Both the position numbers and the translations under genes were made by a program. A stretch of 60,923 bases of DNA from the NCBI GenBank assembly GCA_041658665.1, contig JBAZZR010000004.1, forward strand, positions 1-60,923. Reading direction: 5' to 3'. This DNA comes from Patescibacteria group bacterium (lineage in GTDB: Bacteria > Patescibacteriota > Patescibacteriia > Patescibacteriales > UBA12465). Position 1 is the stretch's first letter; each line of letters begins with the position of its first letter. Positions 750 through 40,786 of this stretch are shown one piece after another. Under the pieces are notes generated by a model that saw only the letters and a list, made by a program, of their open reading frames with translations, searched no databases and was not told the DNA's origin.

Positions 750-1604
750 ATGAAATATAAATTTGCAGTCATGGCCTGTACCTTAATTTTGTGCAGCAGT
801 ATGGCTATGGCAGCGGCTAGAAGCTCAAATTATCTTATTTCTACTGAAGTCTTTGACGTTGGAGGAACAACTGCCCGCTCAAACTCGTATGTCCTTGCCG
901 GTAAACTGCGTGATAAACAAACCGGAACATTAACCAATGCCAATCATTCGCTCTTCGAAGGTTTTATGCGTAGTGTATATTCATTTTTTCGACCAACCCC
1001 ACAACCACCTGCCCTGGCCGCTATCCAGCCAAAAAATGGATTTAATGACCAATCAATTTCGGCAACCATAACCGGCGCCAATTTTAGGAGCGGAATAATC
1101 ACCAAACTCACAAAAAGTGGCGAAAGCGATATTTTGGCCAGCAATATTATTGTAAATTCAGCTACCAGACTATCCTGCCAATTTAACCTTACAGGTAAAA
1201 CAATTGGTTATTGGGACCTTACAGTAACAAATGATGACGGAAAAACGGCCACTCTTCCACAAGCCTTTTCTATCCAGTCTCCCTCCATTACTGTTACTAA
1301 ACCAGTATCCAACACTCCTAATCCTTTTAATCCGCAAGCTGGGGCAACTACAATCAAATATTCTCTCAGCAAAGATGCGGATATAATCATTTACCTCTAT
1401 AATATACGCGGTGAACGTATCTGGCAGTATGTGGCTAGTGCGGGCCAAACCGGCGGAAAACTAGGGGAAAACGAAGTTCTCTGGGATGGAATTACAACAT
1501 TTAAACAGATCGCTAGTTCAGGAGTATATATTGTAACGGTTAATGTTCAGGATGGCGCCAATGTAAGAACCTTAAGCAAATCAAAGATTGCAATTATAAA
1601 ATGA
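750..1604 (+). CDS. Secreted protein with IPT/TIG-like Ig domain and C-terminal FlgD-Ig/T9SS-CTD-like domain
   Basis: Signal peptide. C-terminal NTPNPFNP...IKYSL...IYLYNIRGE...WDG...SSGVYIV motif. Confidence 0.75.
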   Translation: MKYKFAVMACTLILCSSMAMAAARSSNYLISTEVFDVGGTTARSNSYVLAGKLRDKQTGTLTNANHSLFEGFMRSVYSFFRPTPQPPALAAIQPKNGFNDQSISATITGANFRSGIITKLTKSGESDILASNIIVNSATRLSCQFNLTGKTIGYWDLTVTNDDGKTATLPQAFSIQSPSITVTKPVSNTPNPFNPQAGATTIKYSLSKDADIIIYLYNIRGERIWQYVASAGQTGGKLGENEVLWDGITTFKQIASSGVYIVTVNVQDGANVRTLSKSKIAIIK

Positions 1605-2590
1605 AAAAATTATTACTGTTTCTTATAATCCTTATAATTATTACTTTTGCAAATCAAGCCTTTGCCGCGGTAGTAGGCAGCACTGACGACCCAATGTCCG
1701 TCGGAGGCGGTGCAAGACCGCTCGGAATGGGACGCGCTTTTACTGCGATTGCCGACGACGCTGACGCACCATTTATAAATCCTGCAGGATTGGCCGGCTT
1801 GAAAGGCCCACAAGGCATGACAATGTTTACTAATCTTATGGGCGAAGTATATTACACTGAACTTTGCGGATCGATTCCATCAGAATATGGAGCTGTGGGG
1901 GCGGGATTAATCATGACCGGTGTAAACGGAATTCCTACCGACACCGGGCCTCTAGCGGATTACTATGACTCCCTTTTTCTTTTATCTTACAGCACTCCCC
2001 TTGCCCGTTTTTTTCAATATGCCAACAACGTCTTTGTAGGTGGCAATATCAAATTTTTTAGCCGCGGGTTTTCTGGCGGAATCTCACAATACGCTTCCGG
2101 CACCAGCGCTGACATTGGACTGAAATATATTTTTAGTCCAAATCTAAGCTTTGGAATATGTAGGCAAAACTTTTTGCCGGTCTCTTTTGGCGGAGTATTA
2201 AGAATAAGCGGGGGAGCTGAAGAATCCATTGCTGGTATTACCAAAATTGGATTTGCAGCTCGCCCAGTACCTTTTGGCAAAGACCTTTTACTGGCATTTG
2301 ACACCGATCTTCCAGCACAAAGCGGACGTCCTATTACCTTTCATTTTGGAACCGAATGGAAACAAAGCGAATATCTTACCCTGCGGGGAGGACTAGACCA
2401 AAGCCTTGACGCCGCTACAGATAGTCACGCCAGCACCAATTGGACCTGCGGATTATCACTTGGTTACGCCGGATTTAGGGTAGACTACGCTTATCATCCG
2501 TACTATAATGATCCAAGTTTAGCGACAAATTATCTTTCGCTTTCGTATCAAGCGGAACCGTGGTTTGCTCTAAAGGGAAGAACAGAATAA
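1601..2590 (+). CDS. PorV/PorQ-like (FadL-type) outer-membrane beta-barrel
   Basis: Signal peptide, GGGARPLGMGRAF...DDADAPFINPAGL plug motif, amphipathic strands, DYAYHPY near the end. ATGA-type coupling to upstream gene region. Confidence 0.75.
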   Translation: MKKLLLFLIILIIITFANQAFAAVVGSTDDPMSVGGGARPLGMGRAFTAIADDADAPFINPAGLAGLKGPQGMTMFTNLMGEVYYTELCGSIPSEYGAVGAGLIMTGVNGIPTDTGPLADYYDSLFLLSYSTPLARFFQYANNVFVGGNIKFFSRGFSGGISQYASGTSADIGLKYIFSPNLSFGICRQNFLPVSFGGVLRISGGAEESIAGITKIGFAARPVPFGKDLLLAFDTDLPAQSGRPITFHFGTEWKQSEYLTLRGGLDQSLDAATDSHASTNWTCGLSLGYAGFRVDYAYHPYYNDPSLATNYLSLSYQAEPWFALKGRTE

Positions 2591-2593
2591 AAA

Positions 2594-4084
2594 ATGACAA
2601 GAAAAATATTCCTGGTTATTTTGGCGATAACTTTTATTATTACCGCTGTATCAATTGCCCAAGCAATCCCCAAAGAATATCTACCGGGCGATTTTGTTCA
2701 TATTATTGTTGAATCCCCAATCGATACCGCCCAAATCACTGCCACTTTGCCGGATGGTAAGATTTTGAGTTTGTTACATGAGCGCCGCAGCAATGTTTGG
2801 CGTGGAATCTGGGAAGTACCGGTTGGATTTAAGCGAGGAAACTATTTCGCCAAATTATCAGCTGTAGATATCTCTGGGAATGTTTTTGAAGGAAAATCAG
2901 ATTCTTTTACGGTGGGAGAGATTGCAATGATTCTGCTGGTTGGAAAAGCTACTCCAGAAACCACCAGGGTTCCTCTCCAACAAAAAATTAGCCTTCCACC
3001 CCCACCCGCCGGACTGACCGAAAAAGAACTTATGAGCGCAATCCGCAAACTGATATTAGAAAAACCAACTGGTCCTGAACCAGCAATCCAAGCCGTAGAA
3101 AAATCCATGCTGATTCAACAAAATATCGATAATGGAACAAACAGTCTTGAGAATAAACGTTATTCCGAGGCGGCTGGTTATTTTAGAGTTGCTCTTTTTC
3201 TTGACCCCAAAAACAAAGAGGCCGGCCAAAAGTTAGCACAAGCAAATCAACGTTACTCCAGGGAAAAGAATTTAAATATTTTCGTATATGCTTCAATAGC
3301 AGTTGCTATCATATTACTAGTAACAGTTCTCTTGTTTATTTATAATAAATTTAAACCACAAGTCTGTCCCCCTACTGTCCCAGCCTCGGTTATCCCAGTA
3401 AAAGAAAGAGAAGCACTTTTCTTTAGCCAACTTGGTTGGAAAAATAATCCCTTTGTCCTAGAAGCCCCAATTCCATTTAGCGAAGAAGGAAAACTCTCTT
3501 TGAGTGGATTACACGCTTTTATTAAAGGGCGGATTACTACAGTTGGCGGAAAAGATCTTTCCCCATTTACTGATATTTCTCTTGAGGAAATCCATAAATT
3601 ATCAAATGGCAATCCCAAAACCGCCCTTTTAATCTGTAAATGGGCGCTAGAAGAAACCATTAGAAAGAACGAAAATAAAATCACAGCTGAAATAGTTAAG
3701 GCTTACGAATCAATTGCTCCCAAGAGCATTTTGATTGCAGATGATGAAGAGATGATTGTACATAGTTTAAGCACCATCTTAAAAAAAGGCGGTGGCTACC
3801 TAACCGATACCGCCCAAGATGGCGAAGAAGCCCTCAATAAAATCCGATCAAACCGCTATTCCGCCGTTTTGCTGGATATTGAAATGCCCAAATTAAATGG
3901 CTATGAGATATTAAAACAAGCTAGGGCAATTTATCCTTCATTGCCAATTATATTCGTCACCGGAAAAGGAGACCCCAAGAAAACGATCGAAAGTATAAGC
4001 CAGTATGACCTTACCGGTTATATAGAAAAGCCATTTACACCTGAAAAAGTGCTAGATGCAGTAGCAAGAGCCTTAAATATCTAG
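2594..4084 (+). CDS. Membrane-anchored multidomain response regulator (Ig-like, TPR, TM, ExeA-like helical remnant, REC)
   Basis: Signal peptide, TPR (EAAGYFRVALFLDPKNKEA), TM helix, C-terminal receiver (ILIADDE...LLDIEMP...FVTG...EKPF). Confidence 0.7.
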   Translation: MTRKIFLVILAITFIITAVSIAQAIPKEYLPGDFVHIIVESPIDTAQITATLPDGKILSLLHERRSNVWRGIWEVPVGFKRGNYFAKLSAVDISGNVFEGKSDSFTVGEIAMILLVGKATPETTRVPLQQKISLPPPPAGLTEKELMSAIRKLILEKPTGPEPAIQAVEKSMLIQQNIDNGTNSLENKRYSEAAGYFRVALFLDPKNKEAGQKLAQANQRYSREKNLNIFVYASIAVAIILLVTVLLFIYNKFKPQVCPPTVPASVIPVKEREALFFSQLGWKNNPFVLEAPIPFSEEGKLSLSGLHAFIKGRITTVGGKDLSPFTDISLEEIHKLSNGNPKTALLICKWALEETIRKNENKITAEIVKAYESIAPKSILIADDEEMIVHSLSTILKKGGGYLTDTAQDGEEALNKIRSNRYSAVLLDIEMPKLNGYEILKQARAIYPSLPIIFVTGKGDPKKTIESISQYDLTGYIEKPFTPEKVLDAVARALNI

Positions 4085-7926: not shown

Positions 7927-9321
7927 ATGACAAAAAAAAGAATAGCGCTTATTGCCGCACTCTTTCTTGTTTCCGGTGTTTGTTTCTTCAATGGCTGTGG
8001 AGGAGGTAACTCTCCGGCTCCTACTCCAGTTACCAATTACACGATTAGTGGGCAAGTGGGAACAGTTACTGCCAGCGGAGTACATGGCACTGCCATTCTC
8101 CCCGTCACCGATGTTATTGCCATTGGAGCTAACGCCCAACATTATTTGGCCACTTACAATACAACAACTGGGAGTTTTGAAGTCAAAATTGTCAGTGGGT
8201 GTCCATATGCCGTAGGGTTTTATAATAAAACTGGTTCAACTATTACCTTGCTGGGATATCTAAGGCAAGAACAAGTTAATTGGCATTCTTTGCCGTTAAT
8301 GGATCCTACCGGCGAAGTAACAAACTTAGGTACAGTTGAAATCGATATGGTGAGCATTGAAGCAATCCCTTCAATATCGCTCGATGATATCCTCTCACAA
8401 ACTAATATGGATGCTGCTGCCGCCAATCTTTACGGTCAGGTTGACGGTGTAATGTCAATTTTTACAAATGTAGATGTTGACAGTAACGGGGTTTATGATT
8501 TCCTAGAAAGCAAAGCCTATTTGCTTCAAATCACTATTGGAACTGGTCTTAGCTCTACAGAAGGGATGCCTACCGGTGAAGTAGACAGAATGCTCAATCA
8601 ATTTAACGAAACGTATTATCCGGTTCCCAACGCGTACCAAATCATTTTTCATGCCATTGATGCTCCCAACCCTTCGGTCGGAACACTTGGAACAATTTAT
8701 TTCCCTGTGCCAATTACAGGCGTTGATGGAATACCTCGAACTAGTTTGGTCGGTGACGTTTGGGGAGGTGTTTCTGGACATATATGGAATTTCATGCTTG
8801 CTTCAACCCACTCGGTTGTTGAGGGTGAATTGATTTATCCTACTGTAGTTCCTTCAGGAACTTACACTTTCGAAGTTGCCGGTAAGGGGACTTATACATT
8901 CAACAACGTAACTGGTTCTCCATTAGCAGCTGTGGGAACCACCGAAAGCCTAATTTTCCCAGTTTTCAAAATGGTAACTAATGAAGCAGGTTATGTCACC
9001 ACCATTCATTACAAATGGATGATTCGCGAAGATGGTGTTACCCGCGAAGCCACCGCCAGCGAAGTAAAAGCGGTAATTGTTGATACTGCTATGAGCAGCA
9101 ATGGGACTTTGGTCGAAGCCAGCCCAAGTCTTGGAATAGTTGAGGGTTCTTACCCTCCTCCAGATCCGGATCCCAACTATCATGCTCCAAAAAAAATTGC
9201 TCGGGACAGCAGTTACGTTGATATCTCCGATTGGAACGTTAGATTTGAAAACATTGCCCTGTTTAGCTGCAATTACAAGTTAAATAGTGATATAAGTTTA
9301 TCCTTTATGTTCTTAAAATAG
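7927..9321 (+). CDS. Uncharacterised lipoprotein
   Basis: AGGAG RBS, lipobox-like FNGC-GGG, 464 aa beta-rich ORF. Confidence 0.7.
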   Translation: MTKKRIALIAALFLVSGVCFFNGCGGGNSPAPTPVTNYTISGQVGTVTASGVHGTAILPVTDVIAIGANAQHYLATYNTTTGSFEVKIVSGCPYAVGFYNKTGSTITLLGYLRQEQVNWHSLPLMDPTGEVTNLGTVEIDMVSIEAIPSISLDDILSQTNMDAAAANLYGQVDGVMSIFTNVDVDSNGVYDFLESKAYLLQITIGTGLSSTEGMPTGEVDRMLNQFNETYYPVPNAYQIIFHAIDAPNPSVGTLGTIYFPVPITGVDGIPRTSLVGDVWGGVSGHIWNFMLASTHSVVEGELIYPTVVPSGTYTFEVAGKGTYTFNNVTGSPLAAVGTTESLIFPVFKMVTNEAGYVTTIHYKWMIREDGVTREATASEVKAVIVDTAMSSNGTLVEASPSLGIVEGSYPPPDPDPNYHAPKKIARDSSYVDISDWNVRFENIALFSCNYKLNSDISLSFMFLK

Positions 9322-12171: not shown

Positions 12172-13881
12172 ATGAAAAACAAGTTAAACTTTGGGTTAAT
12201 TGGATTGCTACTCGCCCTTTTACCAATAGCATTGCTTGCCTGTAGCTCTTCGGGCGGTGGCACTCCCGCGACAACTACCACTGTTTCAACCAGTACAACT
12301 TCCACTTCCACGACAACAACATCCTCAACCACTACCACCCTTCATTCAGGCGTCACTATCCTTAGCCGGGATCCTGGAACCTTTGCCGAACGTATAATTT
12401 GCAGCACACCAATTACCGTCGTTTTTAGTGGGGATCTTGATTCATCAAGCGTGAACACCTCCACTTTTCTGCTAAACATTTCTGGCGGTTCAGCTGTTAC
12501 CGGCAGCGTAAGTTATGCCAATAGAGTAGCAACTTTTGAACCTACCTCCATCCTAACTTATAATGCAACTTATGAAATTTCCTTGCAAGGAATTAAAGAC
12601 GCGGAAGGAATAAGCCTCGAAAGCACTTCCTGGAACTTTACAACTGGAAGGGTTTTACGCTCTTTTTACAAGGGAGAAGGACATTACTATCACAACCCTC
12701 CCACTTTATACAACAATTATTTATATGTTGGAACTGATAATACCCTAGTTAATACCCATAATTGCTTTTTCTTTAAATTAGATACAAACCTAACCAAGAT
12801 CTGGGAATATTCTCTTGGCACTAATCCGGTAGCAGGGGCAGGCGTTGTGGATGTAAACAACAATGTTTATTTTATTTACAACAAAGCCAACGAATTTGGA
12901 GGATCCACCGCCTATCTGTGCACCCTCGACCAAAATGGGACATTCCGCTGGGAAAAAGAATTGGGAACCCCTACCGGCTTTGGAATGATGACTCCTGCTC
13001 TCTCCGCCGATAAATCTGTTATCTATGCCGGTGCCTGGGGCCGGGGAAATTACTTGTATGCTTTTTCTTGCGACAGCGCTGACGGAACCCCCCTCTGGAC
13101 ATATGCGCAGGGAGGCATGGTTCCAGTAATTGATAACAACGGAAGGATATATGTGACCGCTAAAAACGCCGATGATTATGAAGTGGTACATTGTGTCTCC
13201 TCTAGCGGATCATCAGAATGGATCTCGGATCAGCTTTCTTTTGAAGTAACCTATAGCGGACCTGAACTAGTAAATTCACCGGTCTTTAGTAAGGATTGGT
13301 TGCATCTATATGTGACTGACGGTCCGACTTTAAACTGTATTAATACAACGACAGGAACGCTTGAATGGTCATTTGCTATCGATCTGATAGCGGGAGATGA
13401 TATTAGGATTCGCTGTTCTCCTGCCGTTGACGAAGAAGGAAATATCTTTTTTGGCACAAAGAGTACCAGCAATACGACGGGAAGCATGTATGCTCTTAAT
13501 GCGGACGGAACACTAAAATGGCACAACACCACTAATACCCATGACCATTATTCTAGCCCAGCCATTGGCAATGATGGGGTACTTTATCAAGGAACCGAAG
13601 GCATGATTTTTGAAGCCATCCATAAAGATGATGGGACAAACCATTGGTCAACGTCCACTCCTTCCGGCATGGGAGGAGACATTACCTGGAGTTCACCGGC
13701 AATTGATTCAGATGGCATCGCTTATGTCGGTAATATCTGGGGGACCAATCCCAGCGGCGAAGCAGCCTATGGCGGCTATTTATTTGCCATTCAAACTGAT
13801 TGTACTGGCTTAAAAATCAATTGTGGTTCACCCAAATATCACGGGGGCAACGCAAATACCGGACGGCGTTATGACGAATGA
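12172..13881 (+). CDS. Lipoprotein with Thr linker, Big_5-like Ig domain and PQQ-type beta-propeller
   Basis: LLAC lipobox, TPITVVFSGDLD Ig motif, repeated SSPAI..DG..Y.G and G..W blades. Confidence 0.8.
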   Translation: MKNKLNFGLIGLLLALLPIALLACSSSGGGTPATTTTVSTSTTSTSTTTTSSTTTTLHSGVTILSRDPGTFAERIICSTPITVVFSGDLDSSSVNTSTFLLNISGGSAVTGSVSYANRVATFEPTSILTYNATYEISLQGIKDAEGISLESTSWNFTTGRVLRSFYKGEGHYYHNPPTLYNNYLYVGTDNTLVNTHNCFFFKLDTNLTKIWEYSLGTNPVAGAGVVDVNNNVYFIYNKANEFGGSTAYLCTLDQNGTFRWEKELGTPTGFGMMTPALSADKSVIYAGAWGRGNYLYAFSCDSADGTPLWTYAQGGMVPVIDNNGRIYVTAKNADDYEVVHCVSSSGSSEWISDQLSFEVTYSGPELVNSPVFSKDWLHLYVTDGPTLNCINTTTGTLEWSFAIDLIAGDDIRIRCSPAVDEEGNIFFGTKSTSNTTGSMYALNADGTLKWHNTTNTHDHYSSPAIGNDGVLYQGTEGMIFEAIHKDDGTNHWSTSTPSGMGGDITWSSPAIDSDGIAYVGNIWGTNPSGEAAYGGYLFAIQTDCTGLKINCGSPKYHGGNANTGRRYDE

Positions 13882-15273: not shown

Positions 15274-17100
15274 TTGCTAGGTTCAGCGTGTCCCTTACTG
15301 CTAGATCCGCTTTCACTCTTTTTTGGAATAACTATATTCACCCTCGCCATTCCGACATTTATCTACTCATTTGGCTACCTAAGAGGTCACTATTCTCTTA
15401 GTAAAATATGGATGGGACAAATTCTTTTTGTCATCTTTATACTATCGATGCTGGCAGTAGTTACAGTTGGCAATGCTTTTGCTTTCCTGATTGTATGGGA
15501 AATAATGTCACTGTCTTCCTATTTTCTGGTGGTCTTTGACAGTACCAACAAAAAATCAATTGAAGCCGGAACCATTTATCTCGTTATGACCCATATCGGG
15601 ACAGCCCTACTAACCATTGCTTTTCTATTAATGTACAAGCACTGCGGCTCATTTGATTTTAGTGTTCTGCATAATGCCTTAATTTCGCTACCCGAAAGGC
15701 AAAAAGATATTATCTTTCTATTATTATTGTTTGGCTTTGGAACCAAAGCTGGCATCGTTCCCCTGCATATCTGGCTACCATACGCCCATCCCCAAGCTCC
15801 CAGCCACATTTCAAGCCTTATGTCTGGCGTAATGATTAAAACCGCTCTGTACGGCATTATTCGTTTCATCATTTTGATTTTGGGAGTCAACTCACTCTGG
15901 TGGGGAGAATTGGTGATTGTTTTGGCTTGCATCTCATGTTTGGTAGGAGTAATTTACGCTTTGATGGAACAGGATATTAAAACTTTACTTGCCTATTCTA
16001 GTGTGGAAAATATCGGCATAATTTTATTGGGGATTGGAAGTTCTATGCTTTTTTTAAAGCTGGGCGCTTCCACCCTTGCCATTCTTGCCATGACTGCCGG
16101 CCTCTACCATTTGATTAATCATGCTGTTTTTAAAGGTTTACTTTTCCTTGGGGCAGGCAGCATTTACAATGCTACCGGAACACGCAACATTGAAAAACTG
16201 GGCGGTTTAATCAAAAGCATGCCTTGGACCGCCGCCTATTTTCTGATCGGCTCGATGGCCATTTCCGCGCTCCCCCCCATTAATGGATTCATTAGCGAAT
16301 GGCTAACCCTTATTATGCTTTTCCTGGGAGCACTAACTTATACCGGAGGAATGAAAATATTTTTATGTTTCACCGCAGCCATACTGGCCTTAACCGGCGG
16401 GCTGGCTGCCGCCTGTTTTACCAAAGCCTTTGGTATCACTTTTCTGGCGCAACCCAGAAGCGCTAGAGCCCAAGATGCGAAAGAAAGTTCTTTAAGTATG
16501 AATATCGGCATGGGAATTTTAGCCTTCTTTTGTATTGCTTTAGGCTTGGGCGCCGCCTACTTTATTGCGCTTATCAGTTCAGTAGCTAACTTTGCAACAG
16601 GTCTCAATATGGCAAAGATAAATTTTTCGCTCAACCCTTTTGTTGTTGCTCCCCACCCCCACATTTTTCTTTCCCCCCTCCTTCTTTCCGGCATTTTGAT
16701 TATCATTGCCGCCTTCTTTACTTTGGGCCTACGCCTCTTTTTTGGCAAAGCCAAAGTCACCATCGGGCCTACCTGGGACTGCGGTTATTACAAATTAACC
16801 CATCGAAACGAATATACCGCCACCGGCTTTTCTAAGCCTTTTCGCTTGGCTTTTAGTTTTTTCTTATTCCCTTTTCATAAAGTTCAAAAAATTAAAGAAT
16901 CACGCTATCACATAAAATCATTTGCTTATGAAACCCATACCACTAAGATATTTCTTGAATATTTTTATAAGAACTTTATTGCCGGAATATTTGGCACCGG
17001 CAAATACATGCGCAACATCCAGGCTGGCAGCATCCATATTTATCTGGGATATATCTGCCTGACCATATTACTGCTTTTAGTCTTTATAGGATGGTTTTAA
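15274..17100 (+). CDS. hyfB: Ehr/hydrogenase-4 antiporter-like membrane subunit B
   Basis: WEIMSLSSYFLV, GTKAGIVPLHIWLPYAHPQAPSHISSLMSGVMIK, TWDCGY. Start codon uncertain. Confidence 0.88.
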   Translation: MLGSACPLLLDPLSLFFGITIFTLAIPTFIYSFGYLRGHYSLSKIWMGQILFVIFILSMLAVVTVGNAFAFLIVWEIMSLSSYFLVVFDSTNKKSIEAGTIYLVMTHIGTALLTIAFLLMYKHCGSFDFSVLHNALISLPERQKDIIFLLLLFGFGTKAGIVPLHIWLPYAHPQAPSHISSLMSGVMIKTALYGIIRFIILILGVNSLWWGELVIVLACISCLVGVIYALMEQDIKTLLAYSSVENIGIILLGIGSSMLFLKLGASTLAILAMTAGLYHLINHAVFKGLLFLGAGSIYNATGTRNIEKLGGLIKSMPWTAAYFLIGSMAISALPPINGFISEWLTLIMLFLGALTYTGGMKIFLCFTAAILALTGGLAAACFTKAFGITFLAQPRSARAQDAKESSLSMNIGMGILAFFCIALGLGAAYFIALISSVANFATGLNMAKINFSLNPFVVAPHPHIFLSPLLLSGILIIIAAFFTLGLRLFFGKAKVTIGPTWDCGYYKLTHRNEYTATGFSKPFRLAFSFFLFPFHKVQKIKESRYHIKSFAYETHTTKIFLEYFYKNFIAGIFGTGKYMRNIQAGSIHIYLGYICLTILLLLVFIGWF

Positions 17101-17103
17101 CCG

Positions 17104-17994: not shown

Positions 17995-18630
17995 ATGGAA
18001 ACATTTTTGGTTTTAGGTCTGCTAGGATCAACTTTCGCGATGGTTTTTTCAAAACGCATTAGTGCCCTGATCGGCAATTTTGCTTTGCAATCTTTTTTTC
18101 TTTGCCTCTTTTCTTTTATGGAAGCGCTTAAGGGGAACCACCTCGGCCTTTATCTTATATCGGGCTTGATCTTAGTGCTAAAAGTTATTCTTATCCCACA
18201 AATCATTCGTTATGTTGCCGTTAATATCAAGTCAGACGAGAATCTCGGCTTTTTCATTAGCCCGCAACTCTCTCTCGTCTGCGCTTTAGTTTTAACCTAT
18301 TTAGCGTGGCTCCTTGCCTCCACGGTTTTTATGGGGCAGCCAATCTTAATCAGGATATTTGGTGCCACAGCCTTTTCCATGGTCTCATTGGGGATATTTC
18401 TGATGATTTTTAGAATCATAGCTTTGGCACAAGTTATCGGACTATTGGCGATGGAAAATGGGATTTTTCTGCTTGCCTCCGCAGTATCCGGTGGAATGCC
18501 ATTTATAGTTGAAATGGCGATTTTCTTTGATATTTTTGTGGGCGTGGTCATCCTGGGAATTTTTATTTTTAGAATCAATAAACTTTTTGTGGGAATTGAC
18601 GTCAGCAAATTAAACAGTTTAAAAGGATAA
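17995..18630 (+). CDS. hyfE: Hydrogenase-4 membrane subunit E
   Basis: Hydrophobic protein with QVIGLLAMENGI motif, in the expected operon position. Confidence 0.85.
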   Translation: METFLVLGLLGSTFAMVFSKRISALIGNFALQSFFLCLFSFMEALKGNHLGLYLISGLILVLKVILIPQIIRYVAVNIKSDENLGFFISPQLSLVCALVLTYLAWLLASTVFMGQPILIRIFGATAFSMVSLGIFLMIFRIIALAQVIGLLAMENGIFLLASAVSGGMPFIVEMAIFFDIFVGVVILGIFIFRINKLFVGIDVSKLNSLKG

Positions 18631-18633
18631 TAA

Positions 18634-27205: not shown

Positions 27206-27324
27206 ACCCGGCGATGTTCTACTCTCCCCAAAAACGAAGTAATTGAGTACCATCGACCCTGGAGGCTTTCACTTCCGTGTTCGGGATGGGAACGGGTGGG
27301 TCACCTCCGGTATGATCACCGAGA
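27206..27324 (-). rRNA. rrf: 5S rRNA
   Basis: Contains CCCATCCCGAACACGGAAGTGAA and GGGAGAGTAG, with paired termini. Ends approximate. Confidence 0.95.
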
Positions 27325-27427
27325 TTTATTATTAAATTTTAAGGTTCAAAATTAAACAGCAATGTAAGATTGTAAAGTAAAACAATCTCGCCTATGGTGG
27401 AAAGAATTCCCACAGCTAAATTGAGAA

Positions 27428-30293
<2,866 letters not shown>

Positions 30294-33089: not shown

Positions 33090-33281
33090 TTTAAATCCTC
33101 CTATTGGGAATGTGGGATTATTCTATCAGATTAACAAGCCAGTAGCCACAGCACAATCTTGTCCTCATCACATTTCTTGCTCTCCCTTGCCCTCTCCTCC
33201 CCTAAAGATCCACACAAGTTATATTCTCGTTATCACGATAATACTAGTGCAAGTCTGTTAATTTGTTTCATGGGAGTAAAG

Positions 33282-36200
33282 ATGTCCAATCGAGACGTAA
33301 ATAAAAGGACCGGCCTAATTGCCTCCCTCATTTGCATTATCATATTTTCTTTTGCTTCGCCCGTTCTTGCCACCTGGCCCATGTTTCGCCATGATGCCCA
33401 AAATAGCGGACAGTTAACCATCCCCACAACGAGCACGCCAAATACCCCCCTAAATAAATATCAAGAAGTGTGGAGCAAGTCGGTAGTCAATGAAATTATT
33501 GGCTTACCAGTATCAGATAATAATAACGATATCTATTACGTGGAAAAAGCCGCCAATTCAGATACCGCAGTCCTTATTAAACGCGATTATAATACCGGAG
33601 AACAACTTTGGGCTAAATCATTTAATTCTCAATCAACTACCAATCTTTTTTCTGCCGGACATGCTCCATTAATATTGGGAGATTGCGTGTATGTAATAGG
33701 AACATCAATTGAAGATTTGAACGATACACAAACCCCCTTTATAAGCCTTTATGCATTTAACATCTCTGATGGGACACAGCAATCATTTAATGCAACCGAT
33801 GGGACTCGAATGACCATCCCGATTGGAATCAATTATGGCGCAACTGGATATGTTGGAGAAGTTGAATTCACACAATACTATTCTCCGCTAATGGGGATCA
33901 CAACCAATCATGGAAAACATACTCTGATAATCCAACAACAATTAACTGCCAGTTTAGGCCAACTGACTTATTCAATCGGCGGACTTACTGCCATCGAGCA
34001 CAACACCACGACTGCCAGTATCGATGGCTGGGGAAAAGTAAGCACCAGTGAATCAGCTCCAATTATTTTTAATAACCAATACGTCATCACGGGAGACAAT
34101 TACGGGTCAATAAAAGTATTTGACTTAGACGGAAACGAGGTAGTTTCCGACCATTCATTCAATTCCAGCATAAAATATTTATTGGCTGATTCTGAAAATA
34201 TTTATGTCTTCTTTGCCGATGGTTACTCCTGTTATAAGTTTTTTACAGAAACCAATGGAATAAGACTGGAATTACAAACACTTGGCAATGGTTCGACAAA
34301 AAATTCATCGGTTTTGCCATCAACCTATCCGACTCTCAATGACAACAAGATAATTTACCAACAATCTATTAGTGTGCCAGGCGGCACAAACATCCTGAAT
34401 ACTTTATCCATGGATACTTCTGCAACCAACAGCTCGATAGCAACAATAAGCTACCGCTCTTCCTATGCACCAAGCGTTGTTGACAATCAACAAAATAGTT
34501 TTGGATCAGTTGATAAAACCATTGGCAGCTATGACCAATCCCTACATGAATTATGTACCCAGGAGATTATTTCCTTTAAGGACAATTCTGACAATATAAA
34601 ATATGTTATCCCCACCAATAACGCCCTAATTTTAAGTGGTTCAAATACAATAGTTAGACTTTCTGGAGCAAGGGATATCAATTTAGCCCCATCGGCTGAA
34701 GCTGGAACAAACCAAACAACAATAGAAGGATCAACCGTTCAATTAGACGGCAGCCAATCAACTGATGCGGAGAGAGACTATCCATTGACTTATCTGTGGA
34801 CGGGTTCAAATGGAATTACCATATCAAACACAACCGCAGAATCCCCCATTTTTGTTGCACCGGAGATATCAGAGATATCGGTTTATTCCTTTACATTACA
34901 AGTAACCGATAGTTACGGGGCAGCTTCTATAGATACCGTGGAGGTTACAGTTATTCCTAGAGCAGAAACACCGCCAGCAACACCAATCCTTGCTAAAGAT
35001 GCCTCCATTACCGTTAATGAAGACTCTTCTGTTGCTATAAATCTTGAAAGCCTAATTACTAATCCTGACGATAGAAAAATAACGATTACAATTGCCCGCA
35101 ATGCTAAGAAAGGTGTCCTCTCACAATCTGAAAATATTGTCACCTACCAGCCCGAAAACAACTATTTTGGTGAAGATTCTTTTTACTACCAAGTTGCTGA
35201 CAATTCACACAATCTATTAACTGCCGAGGTAAGCGTTACAATTATACCGATTAACGATCCGCCTACTACTAAAGATGGGACTGCGTCAACAAACCAAAAC
35301 ACTCCTGTGACAATCGCTCTAAATAGTGATGATGTAGATTCTACGGTGCTATCCTACTCAATCAGCGAACAGCCCCTACATGGCACCTTGATCCTGGGAA
35401 CGAACGAAGCCATTTATACGCCCAATACGGACTACTCTGGTTCGGATAATTTTTCCTATTATGCAACCGACGGCAGTCAAACCAATGGAACTTCATTCCC
35501 AGCCATCGTTTCTATCTCTGTCTGTGCAGTTGATGATGAAAATCCAATTGCTAGCTTATCGGTTTATGGGAACCAAACAAACGGCTGGTATACCGGAACA
35601 GCCGCAGTGTTAATTGAAGCCGAAGATGATACGGCTATTGCTGAAATCAATTATTCAATCGATGGTTCCCCAGTAAAGGTGGCAGGCAATGGAAATACAT
35701 TCTTACAAACTGCCTTTAATCTATCTTCCAATGGCAATCACACCATCCTCTACCAGGCTATCGATAATGCCGGTAATTGCAGCATCAATTATTCTGCCAA
35801 TCTGCAAATCGATGCCGCCGCTCCTACCATTGATAACATTCAAATGACGGCCACTGCCAGCACACTTTCTATCACCAATGGTGAAACGGTTGATTCGGGC
35901 ATTCTGGCCAGTGAAATCCAAAACATCAGCGCCCGGATTTATGATAATGAGGGAGGATCCGGGATTGTTCCTGCAAACCTAGAAGTAAAAATTAACGGGA
36001 GTATAATTAATTCAAACAAAATCAACTGCTCAGCTTCTCCCACAACCCAAGGCGTAGCAGCCTATACTGTCAGCTGCTCAAGTGCCGACCAACTACTAAC
36101 TGGAAATAACCAAATTGAGATTGAAGCCACTGATCTGGCAGGCAATAAAACCAACCAATCGTTTACCCTAAAAACCGCTAGCTTAATCTCCAGCGGTTAT

Positions 36201-36479
36201 TGCTATCCTAATCCTTGGGATCCAAATACAACTAGCCTTAAGTTTGCTTTCTCGGTTAGCCAAACCACCCAAGCCAAAATCTATATCATTGATGAAGCCT
36301 ATCAACCAGTTAAAACTATTAATCGCGAAGTATCAGCCGGCAATGTTTTAGTTGAGTGGGATGGGATTAACGATTTTGGTTCCCTCGTCAACAATGGACT
36401 TTATCTTTATCGGGTGATTGATGCAGCAAACCAGCAAACCATTGTAAAAGGTAAATTAGTCGTCATAAGGAGCAGATAA
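33282..36479 (+). CDS. Large surface protein: PQQ-like propeller, PKD and cadherin-like Ig repeats, C-terminal FlgD/T9SS-CTD-like domain
   Basis: GGGAG RBS before ATG 33282, WPMFRHDAQNSG, LDGSQSTD..LTYLW, VNEDS/NDPP repeats, CYPNPWDP...WDGINDFG..VNNGLYLY. Confidence 0.8.
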   Translation: MSNRDVNKRTGLIASLICIIIFSFASPVLATWPMFRHDAQNSGQLTIPTTSTPNTPLNKYQEVWSKSVVNEIIGLPVSDNNNDIYYVEKAANSDTAVLIKRDYNTGEQLWAKSFNSQSTTNLFSAGHAPLILGDCVYVIGTSIEDLNDTQTPFISLYAFNISDGTQQSFNATDGTRMTIPIGINYGATGYVGEVEFTQYYSPLMGITTNHGKHTLIIQQQLTASLGQLTYSIGGLTAIEHNTTTASIDGWGKVSTSESAPIIFNNQYVITGDNYGSIKVFDLDGNEVVSDHSFNSSIKYLLADSENIYVFFADGYSCYKFFTETNGIRLELQTLGNGSTKNSSVLPSTYPTLNDNKIIYQQSISVPGGTNILNTLSMDTSATNSSIATISYRSSYAPSVVDNQQNSFGSVDKTIGSYDQSLHELCTQEIISFKDNSDNIKYVIPTNNALILSGSNTIVRLSGARDINLAPSAEAGTNQTTIEGSTVQLDGSQSTDAERDYPLTYLWTGSNGITISNTTAESPIFVAPEISEISVYSFTLQVTDSYGAASIDTVEVTVIPRAETPPATPILAKDASITVNEDSSVAINLESLITNPDDRKITITIARNAKKGVLSQSENIVTYQPENNYFGEDSFYYQVADNSHNLLTAEVSVTIIPINDPPTTKDGTASTNQNTPVTIALNSDDVDSTVLSYSISEQPLHGTLILGTNEAIYTPNTDYSGSDNFSYYATDGSQTNGTSFPAIVSISVCAVDDENPIASLSVYGNQTNGWYTGTAAVLIEAEDDTAIAEINYSIDGSPVKVAGNGNTFLQTAFNLSSNGNHTILYQAIDNAGNCSINYSANLQIDAAAPTIDNIQMTATASTLSITNGETVDSGILASEIQNISARIYDNEGGSGIVPANLEVKINGSIINSNKINCSASPTTQGVAAYTVSCSSADQLLTGNNQIEIEATDLAGNKTNQSFTLKTASLISSGYCYPNPWDPNTTSLKFAFSVSQTTQAKIYIIDEAYQPVKTINREVSAGNVLVEWDGINDFGSLVNNGLYLYRVIDAANQQTIVKGKLVVIRSR

Positions 36480-36482
36480 TAA

Positions 36483-38390
36483 ATGAGAACTAAAATACTT
36501 TTCATATTAACCTTATTGGTTTGTCTAAACTTATCTGCTTTAGCCTTGGTTGATCCAACTACGGTCGGAGTAGGCGCTAAAGCTCTCAGTCTAGGGAGAG
36601 CTTACGTTGGCTACACCGATGATGGAGATACTATCTTCACTAATCCGGCTGGCCTGGGAAGAATTGATACACTGAAATTAACCAGCATGCAAACTCAGCA
36701 AAGCAGTGATCTTAATTATTTGGTCTTAGGTGGAGTCTACCCGATCAGTGAGGGCCAAGCCATTGGTATCGGGTATGCCAGCTTAGGAACGGGCGGTATT
36801 GACCTAAGAGATGATAATGGAACATCCCTCGGAAGCGGGAATTATTCAAATTCGGTTTATCTCCTCTCATATGGGATAAATGCTAAAAGAATTCTTCCTT
36901 TTGCCTCAGATAAACTCTCTTTAGGAACCAACCTGAAATACTTTAGCTATGTATTAAATGGTTCTGCCCAGATGGAGCAAGGTAGTGGCAGCGGCATGGA
37001 CATGGATGCCAGCTTAGTCTACGAAGCAAAACCTTGGTTAACTTTAGGTTATACCCAGCAGAATTGCCTTCCTTCCAGCCTTGGCGGAAAAATTTCTTTT
37101 GCCAATGGCTACGAAGAAGGTTTAGCTACAGTTACTAAATTAGGAGGTAAAATTCAAATCTTGGGGGATAAGGATGAATCCATTCAATCATCTCCATATA
37201 AATTATCTCTCGGGCTGGAATCTGATTTTTATCCTACCCAAAATAAAGCCGCCACCATGCACGTGGGCAGTGAATTTTGGCCCAGTGAGGTATTGGCTTT
37301 GCGTGTGGGCATGGACCAAAACTCCTCATCGGATAACACGATGGTAACCAACCTTTCCGCCGGTGTTGGCTTGCGCTATGCTGGTTTTGAATTTGCTTAT
37401 GCGTATCATCCCTATTCTGAATTTTCCGATGACACCGCTCATTACATATCAATCTCCTATGTTGGCATTAACAAATCAGACTATAGTATTGTCATAAAAT
37501 CTCCATCTGATAAATTAATCACCAAAGATCATGCCACAAAAGTTGAAGGCATAATTATTGGAAAAGTTGGCAATCTTCAATCAGTAAATATTAATGGAAA
37601 TATTGTTACATTAAAAACAGACAATTCATTTTCAACCAATCTACCTCTTATCTCCGGCAAAAACTCAATTAGAGTCCAAGCTTCCAAGCCAGATGGCACC
37701 AAAGATGAAAAAGTCGTTCGGGTCTTGCGCATCCAGGAATTCGCCGACGTTAATGAAAAGACTTTGGCTGCAAAAGAAATTGAATATCTTGGCACTTTGG
37801 GTTTGGCTGAAGGATACAAAGACAGCACTTTTAAACCGGACACCATTCTTAGTCGCGCTGAATTAACCACTTTCCTAGTTCGATCTACTGGCTTAAAAAC
37901 CCCTACTGTTTATGGAAATATTTTTAAAGATGTGCCTGAACGCCACTGGGCTAATAGTTATTTAAAGCTGGCAAAAAGATATGAACTGGTGGAGGGTTAT
38001 CCTGATCGAACCTTTAAACCGTCATTATCTATCAACCGGACTGAAGCCGCCGTCATCATAACCCGGTTTGACAATGAAATTGCTGTTCCTTCACGGGTTA
38101 CTACCGCCCCTTACTCTGATATTAAAACTTCTAACTGGGCAGCGGGAGCTATCTCCAAAGCTAAAGAAGCAGGGATGCTTAAGTTTGCCAATGATAACAT
38201 CTTAAATGGTAAAAAGGGAGTTAATCGCGCCCAGTTTGTGTTTATGCTTTCAAAAACATGCATCGGACAGCAACTAATTGCTAATCTACTAGATTTTAAT
38301 ACTGGCTATGATAAGCCAGAAATCCCTATTGTTTATATACCTAATAAAACCAAACAAGCTTCAATTCAACGTTTAATAAATAATTATTAA
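36483..38390 (+). CDS. PorV-like beta-barrel fused to an Ig domain and three SLH domains
   Basis: GVGAKALSLGRAY...IFTNPAGL, AYAYHPY, then SLH repeats (FADV...GYKDSTFKPD..LSRAE, FKDVPERHWA...GYPDRTFKP, YSDIKTSNWA). Confidence 0.85.
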   Translation: MRTKILFILTLLVCLNLSALALVDPTTVGVGAKALSLGRAYVGYTDDGDTIFTNPAGLGRIDTLKLTSMQTQQSSDLNYLVLGGVYPISEGQAIGIGYASLGTGGIDLRDDNGTSLGSGNYSNSVYLLSYGINAKRILPFASDKLSLGTNLKYFSYVLNGSAQMEQGSGSGMDMDASLVYEAKPWLTLGYTQQNCLPSSLGGKISFANGYEEGLATVTKLGGKIQILGDKDESIQSSPYKLSLGLESDFYPTQNKAATMHVGSEFWPSEVLALRVGMDQNSSSDNTMVTNLSAGVGLRYAGFEFAYAYHPYSEFSDDTAHYISISYVGINKSDYSIVIKSPSDKLITKDHATKVEGIIIGKVGNLQSVNINGNIVTLKTDNSFSTNLPLISGKNSIRVQASKPDGTKDEKVVRVLRIQEFADVNEKTLAAKEIEYLGTLGLAEGYKDSTFKPDTILSRAELTTFLVRSTGLKTPTVYGNIFKDVPERHWANSYLKLAKRYELVEGYPDRTFKPSLSINRTEAAVIITRFDNEIAVPSRVTTAPYSDIKTSNWAAGAISKAKEAGMLKFANDNILNGKKGVNRAQFVFMLSKTCIGQQLIANLLDFNTGYDKPEIPIVYIPNKTKQASIQRLINNY

Positions 38391-38398
38391 AATGGAGT

Positions 38399-40786
38399 TC
38401 ATCGCATTACTGTAATATAACCCTTAGCAATTCTTTCTGATCCTGCAATAAGCTGAACAACATACACCCCATTCCCAACACAATTACCGCTAGGGTTTTT
38501 CCCATCCCAATTAATTTCGTTATACCCAATCCTGCCACCATTACTTCCGGCAGCATATTGGTTATTAAAAACAATTGTTCCACTGCTGCTAAAAATAACC
38601 AAGCGGGTTGCTTGATCGGCCGTTAATCTATAGGCCATTCTAAGTGGATTGGTTCTATTCCAGACCACCGGATTAACCACAATTTGACCACCGGGCAGTA
38701 AAATCGCTCGGGTAGTTGTGGTGGTACTAGTTGTCGTGGTTGTTATGGTTGAGGTATTAGTAGTTGTTGTTGCTGTGGTGGTGGTGGCAGTTGTAGTAGT
38801 TGTTGTCGTTGTGGTGGTCGAATAAGACAATTCTGCATTCGATAATCCGCCATAATACCCCATATTAATACGGCTTCCATTGGGATCGGGTTCCATTGAC
38901 CAATCATCTGATGGATTTCCAGCATCGATACAGGGTGACTGATTAGCTTGCCCCTCCGGTATCGATTGTAAGCGCCAGAGCCCCCCAGTTGAACTTACAT
39001 AATAAGGATCAATGACCACATTGCCAGCCCCTTCAGCTGATATGGGGATATTATAATTGTTAGTATTCCCATACGCATCATTATATTGGCAAAGGGAATA
39101 AATATCTGATAAACCAATTTTTATTCCTACCCCAGAATTTGTTGTTATGTTGTTTTTGACTAAAAGCGGAAAAACATTCTCTTCTTTTTCAATGCAATAT
39201 TGAGTTATCTGGTCAATTGTATTATTGCTAATAACCGCCGCCGTGGTGGTTTGTGTAGTGGAAGGCAATAAACTGATCCCGTTTGTGCAACGGGCTATTA
39301 AATTATTGTTAATTCTCAGGTTGGTTGTTATACCGGGATTCGGAAGTTCCACGATAACAGCATTATCCAAATTAGCCACCTGCCCAACATTCCCAATAAT
39401 ATTGTTATTTTGGCAGTGTGCACAAAGGACAGCGGTATCACCTGGACAGCTAATTCTTATTGCAGCCTGGGCAGAGCTATTCTCTTTTAGCTTTATGGTA
39501 AAACCCTCAACCGTTACTGGCTGCCTGCTGTACATATAGACAATGGATCCCAAATCCGAGCCATCAGCTAAACTGGCTTCAATTGTTGCGCTCTCCCCTT
39601 CACCCGAAAGGAGAATGCCAGTTGCAATAGTTAGAGGGAAAGTTTCTCCATTTACTACCCGGTCATAGGTACCACCCGAAACAAAAACTGAGTCGCCGGT
39701 ACTAACTTTTGTTAGGGCATAAGTAATAGTTTTCCATGGATAACTAGGATGCAGGCCAATATTGGTATTATTCCCGTTTTCGGCACTCACATAATAAGTT
39801 TTAGGCCCCGGGTAACTCAACTCAGCCGAAGTTTTATTTCCATTCCAACCCATATTTATTCTGCTCCCATTGGGGGATGGTTCTTGACTATAAATTGAGG
39901 TGGGGTCTCCCCCATCAATTGCATAGGAATGATTGGCATATCCTTCAGTCTTAGACTGCAGACGAAAGCCATCAAAATCAACAAAACTCGGATCAAGCGT
40001 AAATTCGCCAGTACTTTCGGGAGTAGTATTACTATCTACATTGGCATAATAATTATTATATGTATGCAGACAATCTCCAACGAAATCATTTTCAAGGAGA
40101 AGAGCTTGTTGATTATACGCCAGGATTGAATTCATAATGATCCCCGTCGAGGATAGCCTAAGGGAGATCCCGGTCCCTTCATTACTGGCTATCGTACAAT
40201 TTACTACTTCAAAACTGCAATTATCAGTATAAGACATTCCGTTACCAAGACAATTTACAATACAAGCATTCCTTATTTTTAGCCAAGCGTATGCTTCTAA
40301 AAAAACACCAATTCTAGCCGTTTTTTGTCCATCGATGTACACATTGCTGACAATAGCCGGAGATGATGGGCGAGTAAGGGCAAAATATCCTATGGCGCTG
40401 GATCCAGTTAATGCTCCCACTCCGTCAATCCTCAAGTTTTCTATTCTTACCCCTCCAGAGCTTATTTTTATGGCAATTTGTGCGACTGATGGATCGGAAC
40501 GAATAATAGAAGCAGAAGCCCCAAGCAAGCCAGACCCTTCCAAAGTCACAGGAAGATTCATATCCAAAGGAAAAGTTTCTCCAGAGGCCATACTATAGGT
40601 TCCACTAGCCAGATGAATCGTATCTCCCCCAGCTACAGAAGATAAGGCAAAAGTAATGGTTTTCCAAGGGTTATCAGAAGATAGACCAGTGTTGGTATTA
40701 TTACCAGAATTGCTAACATAATAAGTGGTGGCATAGACAGAACTAGTAAAGAAGAACAGGCAAAATATTACGAATATCTTACGCAT
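38399..40786 (-). CDS. Secreted tandem beta-helix (DUF1565-like) protein with poly-Thr linker and CTD-like C-terminus
   Basis: Two copies of YYVS..G.N.N.GL....PWKTIT.AL and of D.G.P....EP.PNGSRINMG. Ends WDGKNPSG..VGNGVYVVQL. Confidence 0.8.
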   Translation of the reverse strand: MRKIFVIFCLFFFTSSVYATTYYVSNSGNNTNTGLSSDNPWKTITFALSSVAGGDTIHLASGTYSMASGETFPLDMNLPVTLEGSGLLGASASIIRSDPSVAQIAIKISSGGVRIENLRIDGVGALTGSSAIGYFALTRPSSPAIVSNVYIDGQKTARIGVFLEAYAWLKIRNACIVNCLGNGMSYTDNCSFEVVNCTIASNEGTGISLRLSSTGIIMNSILAYNQQALLLENDFVGDCLHTYNNYYANVDSNTTPESTGEFTLDPSFVDFDGFRLQSKTEGYANHSYAIDGGDPTSIYSQEPSPNGSRINMGWNGNKTSAELSYPGPKTYYVSAENGNNTNIGLHPSYPWKTITYALTKVSTGDSVFVSGGTYDRVVNGETFPLTIATGILLSGEGESATIEASLADGSDLGSIVYMYSRQPVTVEGFTIKLKENSSAQAAIRISCPGDTAVLCAHCQNNNIIGNVGQVANLDNAVIVELPNPGITTNLRINNNLIARCTNGISLLPSTTQTTTAAVISNNTIDQITQYCIEKEENVFPLLVKNNITTNSGVGIKIGLSDIYSLCQYNDAYGNTNNYNIPISAEGAGNVVIDPYYVSSTGGLWRLQSIPEGQANQSPCIDAGNPSDDWSMEPDPNGSRINMGYYGGLSNAELSYSTTTTTTTTTTATTTTATTTTNTSTITTTTTSTTTTTRAILLPGGQIVVNPVVWNRTNPLRMAYRLTADQATRLVIFSSSGTIVFNNQYAAGSNGGRIGYNEINWDGKNPSGNCVGNGVYVVQLIAGSERIAKGYITVMR

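Follow-up and report, generated by a model that had tools for sequence, protein, structure and literature searches.

Genes for secreted proteins with type IX-like C-terminal domains are coupled to genes for PorV-type barrels on a contig that likely belongs to Margulisbacteria

The stretch of DNA analysed here (the window; 60,923 nucleotides, contig JBAZZR010000004.1 of GenBank assembly GCA_041658665.1, which is filed under Patescibacteria) raises the question of whether PorV-type outer-membrane barrels can export surface proteins, or hold them on the cell, in bacteria outside the Fibrobacteres–Chlorobi–Bacteroidetes (FCB) group. The secretion system known as type IX (T9SS), to which PorV belongs, is described as confined to Bacteroidota or to the FCB group in the abstracts of PMC5445135 and PMC12398890. 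An original prediction, made from the sequence of the window alone, held that three secreted proteins sharing a C-terminal domain (CTD) and two PorV-like barrels make up a cognate export or anchoring system in a non-FCB lineage, one barrel being tied to the wall by surface-layer homology (SLH) repeats. All five open reading frames (ORFs) were found at the coordinates given there (Table 1). The results described below support a barrel–cargo system for export or anchoring outside the FCB group, whereas partner specificity and binding to the wall can at present only be proposed. Of the three outcomes named at the outset as refuting it (an FCB genome with a canonical T9SS, barrels that cluster with FadL, and no predicted CTD–barrel interface), none came about. 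On balance, each CTD protein more likely than not uses the PorV/PorQ barrel encoded next to it as a single-use carrier and anchor, likely with a SprA-like pore but with no recognisable motor or sortase, the SLH-bearing barrels being in addition likely tied to the wall.

The three secreted proteins do end in a common module. A CTD profile built from other genomes only, leaving the window sequences out, was run against the 1361 ORFs of the assembly and matched exactly five: the three window proteins (E 1.5e-27 for protein 2, 1.1e-20 for protein 1 and 1e-17 for protein 3) and two unrelated proteins encoded on other contigs (C1 and C2). In the window proteins each match stopped no more than two residues from the C-terminus. 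TIGR04183, the NCBIfam model of type A CTDs (cut-off 23 bits), gave 26 bits for protein 1, and for protein 2 it gave 21.3 bits with the whole frame 33159..36479 and 28.5 bits with its last 100 residues; for protein 3 one search returned no match and another only 16.7 bits. A type A T9SS CTD, understood as a C-terminal TIGR04183-like domain on a Sec-exported protein, is therefore present in proteins 1 and 2, and in protein 3 according to the present profile alone. The start used for protein 2 is an ATG at codon 42 of the longer frame and gives an N-terminus resembling a signal peptide. Protein 1 matched the model of the PorU C-terminus (E 1.4e-7), and its orthologue at locus L183 matched a TIG domain (E 5e-4). 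When the CTD profile was compared with the Protein Data Bank (PDB), the C-termini of PorU (5e-11) and PorZ/PG93 (7e-8) came first, followed by flagellar FlgD. TIGR04183 matched 48 of the 54 CTDs from related loci at E ≤ 0.01, and the type B model TIGR04131 matched three of the 54, weakly.

The two barrels proved to be PorV-like, as had been claimed, with PorV ahead of FadL both by profile and by fold (the fold being that of barrel 2). The PorV/PorQ family model NF033709, which has a cut-off of 90 bits, matched all 54 barrels of the related loci at E ≤ 1e-3; barrel 2 lies above that cut-off but below those of the orthologue (equivalog) models NF033710 (33.6 bits, cut-off 250) and NF033711 (38.7 bits, cut-off 220). 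A profile of the 54 paired barrels, compared with PDB sequences, found PorV (E 3.7e-7) and no FadL. The AlphaFold2 model of barrel 2 (pLDDT, the predicted local distance difference test, 90.7) consists of a plug and 14 barrel strands, counted from DSSP, followed by an immunoglobulin (Ig)-like spacer of the Glucodextran_B type and the SLH repeats. The FadL barrel has 14 strands too. With this model Foldseek ranked PorV at the top (8gl6_F, E 1.5e-11, root mean square deviation (rmsd) 5.2; 6h3i_F, rmsd 4.5) and FadL/TodX next, with rmsd values of 8–13. No Pfam Toluene_X match was found in either window barrel and, with the FadL fold ranking below PorV, they are not assigned to FadL. The family assignment as such is already public, since NCBI labels some homologues 'PorV/PorQ family'.

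The genes for cargo and barrels are tightly coupled, in the arrangement first described for them. The gene for protein 1 shares a 4-nt overlap (ATGA, 1601-1604) with that for barrel 1, the gene for protein 2 is separated by a 3-nt gap (36479/36483) from that for barrel 2, and the gene for protein 3, which has no barrel of its own downstream, converges on barrel 2 across an 8-nt gap (38390/38399).

To which organism these genes belong is a question in itself. The assembly comprises 1.03 Mb in six contigs, of which the window is C4. Contigs C1-C3 have common end sequences and are nearly identical in tetranucleotide composition (mutual r 0.997-0.998), while C4 is an outlier (r 0.83-0.85 to C1-C3). 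C1 has a 23S rRNA gene of its own, ∼72% identical to that of the window, whereas the window 23S is 85.4% identical to that of a WOR-1 genome available as a single contig (G151). Comparison of the window 23S with plasmid sequences returned only matches of 73-75% and no useful taxon. Out of 43 window proteins, 31 scored better in G151 than in C1-C3, none showed the reverse and 12 matched neither; the named homologues of both barrels are mostly from Margulisbacteria, Saganbacteria or WOR-1, with a few records labelled otherwise. Judged by these sequence comparisons, the window is likely a contig of Margulisbacteria (WOR-1) misbinned into the metagenome-assembled genome (MAG) of another phylum. 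The proposed non-FCB lineage was thus borne out, and the 23S check suggested at the outset pointed to WOR-1 and not to C1 of the same assembly. The genome-wide search suggested together with it would mislead, because the contig looks foreign to that assembly, and the absence of any SprA match from the window and its assembly carries no information. A search of 150 other genomes from the phylum to which the assembly is assigned gave no PorV-family gene, which fits a misbinned C4 and is equally uninformative for this system. Since C4 looks misbinned, the system was therefore tested in its true relatives, the Margulisbacteria.

Some further features of the assembly deserve mention. It is listed as 96.9% complete and 0.73% contaminated, despite the second 23S, the outer-membrane genes and the WOR-1-like proteins on C4; in composition, C5 and C6 resemble neither C1-C3 nor C4. 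The two secreted proteins of C1 and C2 that matched the CTD profile (C1:260143-261585 and C2:156551-158350, both on the minus strand) end in type A CTDs (TIGR04183, 45.8 and 50.6 bits), and their contigs contain no PorV-family gene; these could possibly be acquired genes, or encode proteins that dock on the PorV of another cell. As a caution, with C4 left in the MAG of another phylum, outer-membrane genes would be credited to a lineage to which they do not belong.

The pairing of barrels and cargo holds throughout the phylum. PorV-family genes were present in 140 of 146 Margulisbacteria genomes (over cut-off in 102), with 13-21 matches, some of them partial, in each of five WOR-1 genomes, and CTDs were found in 51 of 51 genomes, at 4-25 per genome. 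Relatives of barrel 2 were collected by an alignment-based locus scan (a single-sequence scan gave none), which yielded 79 loci with 89 of 90 barrel matches mapped. Immediately upstream, where a gene could be seen there, 52 of 79 barrels had a co-oriented CTD gene; immediately downstream, the figure was 6 of 81. CTD genes account for 63 of the 741 non-barrel genes in these loci, and 52 of the 63 have a barrel right after them. For the orthologues of barrel 1, some of whose loci are near-identical, the corresponding values were 36 of 39 upstream and 0 of 40 downstream. In G151, in which 17 CTD genes occur among 1520, eight of 16 barrels follow a CTD gene (∼0.2 expected) and seven of the 16 carry SLH repeats; its CTD cargo proteins reach lengths of 3389, 4408 and 9113 residues. 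The tail domain was C-terminal in all 63 cases in the barrel-2 loci and in all 17 in G151, on unrelated passengers of up to 9113 residues. An origin of the tail from FlgD was considered and set aside: without exception the domain sits at the C-terminus, and the secreted proteins that carry it are unrelated; PorU and PorZ, moreover, rank first, although G151 does have flagellar basal-body genes.

A few small proteins depart from the simple scheme of one passenger with one tail. Some proteins of ∼109 residues, made up of nothing but a signal peptide and a CTD, are each encoded ahead of a small barrel (L039:9654-9983, L078:4700-5029 and G151:C1:1433171-1433497), and it may be asked whether these are caps or plugs of the barrel instead of cargo. 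CTD proteins that are small and have a short beta-repeat N-terminus are encoded next to fibre-like or giant genes devoid of a CTD (window 1..1604; G151:C1:1657026-1665501 and 309951-339394) and may serve as adaptors by which proteins with no tail are kept on a barrel. In the window, the glycine-rich product of the truncated gene before protein 1 is possibly cargo presented through protein 1; among the 49 closest loci, many of them not long enough to reveal such a gene, at least six have a gene with >15% glycine immediately ahead of the CTD gene.

Barrel 2 bears SLH repeats as claimed: three lie over the cut-off, and their RAE and HWA core motifs are conserved across 68 aligned homologues. In the model of barrel 2 the Ig-like and SLH domains come after strand 14, so they would be periplasmic, opposite the CTD site. 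The csaB product makes the usual SLH ligand, and csaB was over cut-off in four of five WOR-1 genomes. Three intact repeats and a predicted periplasmic position are thus in place, with csaB in most of the relatives examined, and the SLH region of barrel 2 likely binds the cell wall; of the earlier claim, the SLH-bearing barrel is what was seen and the tether what it suggests. In G151 such SLH-bearing PorV-type barrels coexist with three OmpM-like porins whose SLH is N-terminal.

An interface between CTD and barrel was also predicted, for barrel 2 and protein 2. The modelled complex of barrel 2 with the CTD of protein 2 scored 0.88 (best of three controls, 0.00), over a mark that is reached by 116 of 157 solved pairs and by two of 215 mismatched pairs; the runs agreed in at least 93% of contacts, with a partner pLDDT of at least 85. 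Contacts are predicted at the plug and at loops that the model places outside the cell, on the side opposite the SLH end; the near-terminal lysine of the CTD takes part in them. A conserved lysine at that position touches PorV in the solved complexes, as described in the relevant passage of PMC10994853. The CTD is thus predicted to dock on the extracellular loops of its own barrel.

How such a complex might reach the surface depends on a pore. Weak matches to the SprA model TIGR04189 were found in 133 Margulisbacteria genomes, in ORFs of ∼1000 and of 1300-1900 residues, which represent two homologous families (hhalign 99.9%, 799 columns). The long family (in G151, C1:1230064-1234137 on the minus strand) occurs in 138 of the 146 genomes, mostly as one match, as judged by a profile whose 22 training rows come from the same 146 genomes; it lies among housekeeping genes, and a CTD gene adjoins it in nine of 22 loci. 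A model of the short family (a G151 protein, pLDDT 87) is a barrel of ∼40 strands, counted from DSSP, that aligns end to end with SprA, itself a 36-strand barrel with a lateral opening, over 692-699 residues (Z 18.0-18.1, rmsd 8.7-9.5), with a template-modelling (TM) score by query of 0.38-0.39 as against ≤0.26 for other barrels. Short-family genes lie near barrel and cargo genes in loci L174-L177 and L189. One SprA-like member has the automatic UniRef label 'SprA N-terminal domain-containing protein', while the Atlas matches of the short protein (0.90-0.92) are automatically named outer-membrane clusters only. The link of these genes to SprA is therefore weak in sequence and moderate in fold, the fold being that of the short family. 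The short family itself was set aside as the core pore, the long family being now the better candidate: its count of 115 of 146 genomes includes cross-matches to the long family, and full-length copies occur, patchily, in only ∼40 genomes. A gene of ∼325 codons, NHL-propeller-like in G151, lies close to the short-family gene in L176, L177, L174 and L172 and is a candidate accessory or plug.

A recognisable motor or sortase was not found in the relatives, so that the suggested search for T9SS machinery (SprA, PorK/L/M/N and PorU) succeeded in part only, with the SprA-like giant barrels. GldM was over cut-off in 0 of 146 genomes, with three marginal matches; GldL, GldN, GldK and peptidase C25 were over cut-off in 0 of 5, with one weak GldK-model match in G240; and PorU, the sortase of CTD cleavage and lipid attachment, was over cut-off in 0 of 61, its matches in 40 genomes falling at model positions 833-1095 (the C-terminal part) except for one at 341-540. 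By these sequence models, for which there was no positive control, the motor, ring and sortase of a canonical T9SS were not detected. No MotA/ExbB match was obtained in five WOR-1 genomes, G151 included, while nine of 14 controls were positive. A scan of 140 hand-picked proteins out of 265 flagged as secreted in G151 gave no T9SS accessory family other than a PorW/SprE match, confined to tetratricopeptide repeats (TPR), in a lytic transglycosylase; it did reveal two secretins, the three OmpM-like porins and one TonB-dependent receptor. The flagellar basal-body and export genes of G151, and its TonB-dependent receptor with a TonB-like neighbour, lie at C1:572918-582000 and 1340288-1342629, yet the genome gave no MotA/ExbB match.

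In the cycle proposed for the single-use carrier, cargo and barrel would both cross the inner membrane by Sec, as their signal peptides suggest. The barrel would then dock at a giant SprA-like barrel encoded elsewhere and pick up the CTD, by analogy with the PorV of Flavobacterium (PMC10994853, in part), and the complex would leave sideways, the barrel never being recycled. Because no PorU cuts the CTD, it is proposed that the cargo stays bound to its barrel, as a permanent, non-covalent anchor; in Porphyromonas gingivalis, PorV and PorQ are suggested, in passages of PMC5562754, to keep PorU and PorZ, respectively, at the cell surface, each pair being 1:1. Finally, the SLH repeats of barrel 2 would likely bind a pyruvylated wall polymer, one chain doing the job that Porphyromonas divides between PorP and PorE (PMC9143113, in part). 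One single-use carrier per cargo would account for the tight gene coupling, the many barrel paralogues per genome of 1.5-1.7 Mb and the missing sortase. CTD genes with no adjacent barrel, such as that for protein 3, would rely on a shared or unlinked one.

Several observations weigh against this single-use cycle, and rival explanations draw on some of them. Half of the G151 barrels and about half of its CTD genes are unpaired. The distances among barrels and among CTDs are correlated (Mantel rho 0.725, as against at most 0.306 under the null in 2000 permutations; rho 0.37 in the 507 comparisons in which the passengers share no BLAST similarity) and nearest neighbours agree in 33 of 54 cases (3.1 expected), which fits co-evolution but is also expected from plain gene linkage, the loci being related and some near-identical. 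The predicted complex attests to likeness with PorV–CTD pairs rather than to binding or partner choice, and since such complexes have already been solved (8GL6) its high score may reflect memory. A cycle with no motor would moreover need another driving force, because in Flavobacterium johnsoniae removal of the motor traps cargo on the translocon, according to a passage of PMC10994853. The same dependence on a motor for cargo release favours a complete but very divergent T9SS whose motor lies beyond the Gld models, be it a diverged GldLM, a borrowed ExbBD/TonB or some other energiser. This is judged rather unlikely, even though 0 of 14 control genomes passed the cut-offs of the Gld and PorU searches, which leaves these with no positive control, and MotA/ExbB does occur in 80 of the 146 genomes. 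The scores of the SprA-like proteins fall well short of the SprA cut-off, so that Gld homologues might have diverged just as much; and in G151, where no MotA/ExbB match accompanies the TonB-dependent receptor and the flagellar basal-body genes, an energiser could have escaped detection. However, the PorV and CTD models still detect their homologues where GldM gave only its three marginal matches, the secreted proteins scanned in G151 included no accessory family except the TPR-only one, and the genomes richest in barrels mostly have no MotA/ExbB.

That the barrels serve as anchors only, the cargo crossing the outer membrane through a secretin of the type II secretion or type IV pilus kind, or alongside the barrel at Bam insertion, and the giant barrels doing something else, is distinctly unlikely. 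G151 does encode two secretins, and the case for SprA is open to attack: none of the 146 genomes passed TIGR04189, for which the best score was 51 of 200 bits, its weak matches cover only model positions ∼555-717, a small stretch that also matches Pfam DUF2460, and sequence and profile searches with both families did not find SprA in the PDB. In fold comparisons, FimD and a porin tie with SprA in Z over 290-360 residues, and by Foldseek E-value SlpA (the best match), FimD and MtrB rank above it. Besides its housekeeping surroundings, the long family has no barrel gene within three genes in 22 loci. The short family also has relatives in Zixibacteria, Latescibacterota and Gemmatimonadota (the three taxon-named among 20 clusters examined of 4194), and these may be SprA paralogues with another job. 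Against this stand the end-to-end alignment of the short family with SprA and its position near barrel and cargo genes in several loci, the CTD genes that abut the long family, and the fact that the latter is as widespread as the barrels (138 and 140 of 146 genomes). Very improbable is a system with no role in secretion, in which the barrels would serve as FadL-type channels for hydrophobic molecules or as wall tethers of the OmpM kind, and the proteins, periplasmic or lid-forming, would have a generic Ig domain of the FlgD type for a tail. FadL and TodX are indeed the next fold matches, Pfam Toluene_X/FadL matches 16 of the 54 related barrels weakly as against two of 54 for Pfam PorV, the CTD also matches FlgD (FlgD_ig in 44 of the 54 related CTDs), and a barrel with SLH is the design of OmpM, which the available text of a preprint (bioRxiv 10.1101/2021.05.31.446380) reports in Saganbacteria and Margulisbacteria. 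Yet PorV comes first by fold and by profile, the domain was C-terminal in every case counted, on unrelated and sometimes giant passengers, the predicted interface is on the outer face of the barrel, and G151 already has its three N-terminal-SLH porins, while the SLH of the window is C-terminal. A stripped-down T9SS of Margulisbacteria, in which a SprA-like core pore serves many single-use PorV carriers, each with its own cargo of up to 9000 residues, with no proton motor or sortase and with SLH fusions that staple cargo, outer membrane and wall together, is given a little under an even chance.

Were the stripped-down T9SS confirmed, the core parts of the T9SS would have a far greater age or mobility than has been assumed, and the Gld motor would have been added later. 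According to a passage of PMC10994853, the T9SS depends on a motor to draw carrier and cargo away from the pore. Margulisbacteria are described as a sister group of Cyanobacteria, and a phylum-wide version near Cyanobacteria that has pore, carriers and tails but no recognisable motor or sortase would bear both on the origin of the T9SS and on the role of energy input. With only two or three components it could, further, be reconstituted in a laboratory host; its many natural CTD–barrel pairs would be a resource for the study of partner specificity and for orthogonal surface display, and the fusion of SLH to PorV would be a new way of tying surface proteins to the wall. In titles and abstracts (subscription papers and supplements lying outside the scope of the search), no published account was found of PorV or type IX secretion in Margulisbacteria, or of PorV with S-layer homology, and the main text of an account of Margulisbacteria and Saganbacteria genomes (PMC6349859) never mentions 'secretion', 'S-layer' or 'outer membrane'. 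The system thus seems to be undescribed in print, though the family assignment is public.

Other genes of the window are less directly connected with the system (Table 1). The gene that follows barrel 1 may link the surface module to signalling: in 30 of 40 cases the N-terminal 230 residues of its product have a match encoded immediately behind a barrel-1 orthologue, and the proteins with such a match differ widely in length. Two exported, lipoprotein-like proteins have no CTD (12172..13881 and 7927..9321, both on the plus strand), one with Big_5 and a PQQ-propeller and the other with no Pfam match. The 23S and 5S rRNA genes (27206..30293, minus strand) have no 16S gene upstream and thus represent an unlinked rRNA operon, next to which lexA lies on the opposite strand, at 30644. 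A six-gene cluster similar to complex I or hydrogenase-4 (15274..22175, plus strand; two Proton_antipo_M, NADHdh, a fused 30/49 kDa subunit and a 20 kDa subunit) is 55-70% identical to that of G151.

Table 1. Features of the window, with positions counted from its first nucleotide
Feature	Coordinates	Strand	Supporting matches
Secreted protein 1, 284 residues: signal peptide, short beta-repeat N-terminus, IPT/TIG-like domain, CTD ∼1296..1601	750..1604	+	TIGR04183, CTD profile
Barrel 1, 329 residues: PorV/PorQ-family outer-membrane barrel without SLH	1601..2590	+	NF033709 64.5 bits, under cut-off
Secreted protein 2, 1065 residues: PQQ-propeller-like N-terminus, PKD and cadherin-like Ig stalk, CTD ∼36192..36470	33282..36479	+	Big_9, Cadherin_4/5, PKD, FlgD_ig
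Barrel 2, 635 residues: plug and 14-strand barrel ∼36552..37460, Ig-like spacer ∼37488..37724, three SLH repeats 37740..38237	36483..38390	+	NF033709 94.7 bits, over cut-off
Secreted protein 3, 795 residues: two DUF1565 beta-helix units, Thr-rich linker, CTD ∼38405..38677	38399..40786	-	DUF1565 E 2.8e-26, FlgD_ig E 1.2e-5
Glycine-rich, fibre-like gene truncated at the end of the contig, 3′ part	1..735	+	Pfam Gly_rich_2 E 1.8e-9
Conserved gene after barrel 1, 496 residues: exported N-terminal part, membrane helix, C-terminal receiver domain	2594..4084	+	Response_reg E 4e-25
23S rRNA gene, taxonomic anchor outside the system	27428..30293	-	Rfam RF02541

How the system compares with those already known can now be considered. 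With the core of the Bacteroidota T9SS (SprA/Sov, PorV and type A CTDs of F. johnsoniae; 6H3I, 8GL6; PMC10994853, in part) it has in common a PorV-family barrel of 14 strands in the model, a near-terminal CTD lysine, a predicted binding to the loops and, in related genomes, a giant barrel alignable with SprA from one end to the other. It differs in that many dedicated, cargo-coupled barrels take the place of one recycled PorV shuttle, in that two paralogous families of ∼1000 and 1300-1900 residues correspond to a SprA model of 2319 positions, in that no GldK/L/M/N or PorU was detected, and in its host, a relative of Cyanobacteria and not an FCB member. The pairs of PorU with PorV and of PorZ with PorQ in P. 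gingivalis (6ZA2, 5M11; PMC5562754, in part) are similar in that a surface protein sits 1:1 on a PorV/PorQ barrel, and the CTD profile is closest to the C-termini of PorU and PorZ; those pairs, however, are sortase machinery, while the passengers found here are unrelated adhesin-, enzyme- and fibre-like proteins in which no sortase domain was found. In the systems of PorP/SprF barrels with type B CTDs and a PorE tether (PorE–PorP–PG1035, SprF–SprB), multiple cognate barrels also anchor cargo and some are tied to peptidoglycan, F. johnsoniae having ten cognate PorP-like carriers (passages of PMC9143113). Here, by contrast, the barrels are of the PorV/PorQ family (TIGR03519 matched two of 54, weakly), the CTDs are type A-like, and a fused SLH module replaces a separate lipoprotein with an OmpA domain. 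OmpM/SlpA of diderm Terrabacteria (bioRxiv 10.1101/2021.05.31.446380; PMC10628300) likewise joins an outer-membrane barrel to wall binding by SLH, but there, as in the OmpM-like porins of G151, an N-terminal SLH precedes a porin barrel, whereas three C-terminal SLH repeats follow a PorV-type barrel here. FadL, TodX and OmpP1 (1T16, 3BRY) share the 14 strands and the N-terminal plug, and differ in fold distance (rmsd 8-13, compared with 4.5-5.2 for PorV), in having no sequence match in the PDB search and in the fixed pairing with a CTD seen here. Taken together, these comparisons suggest that the system is not a canonical T9SS but likely works like the outer-membrane half of one.

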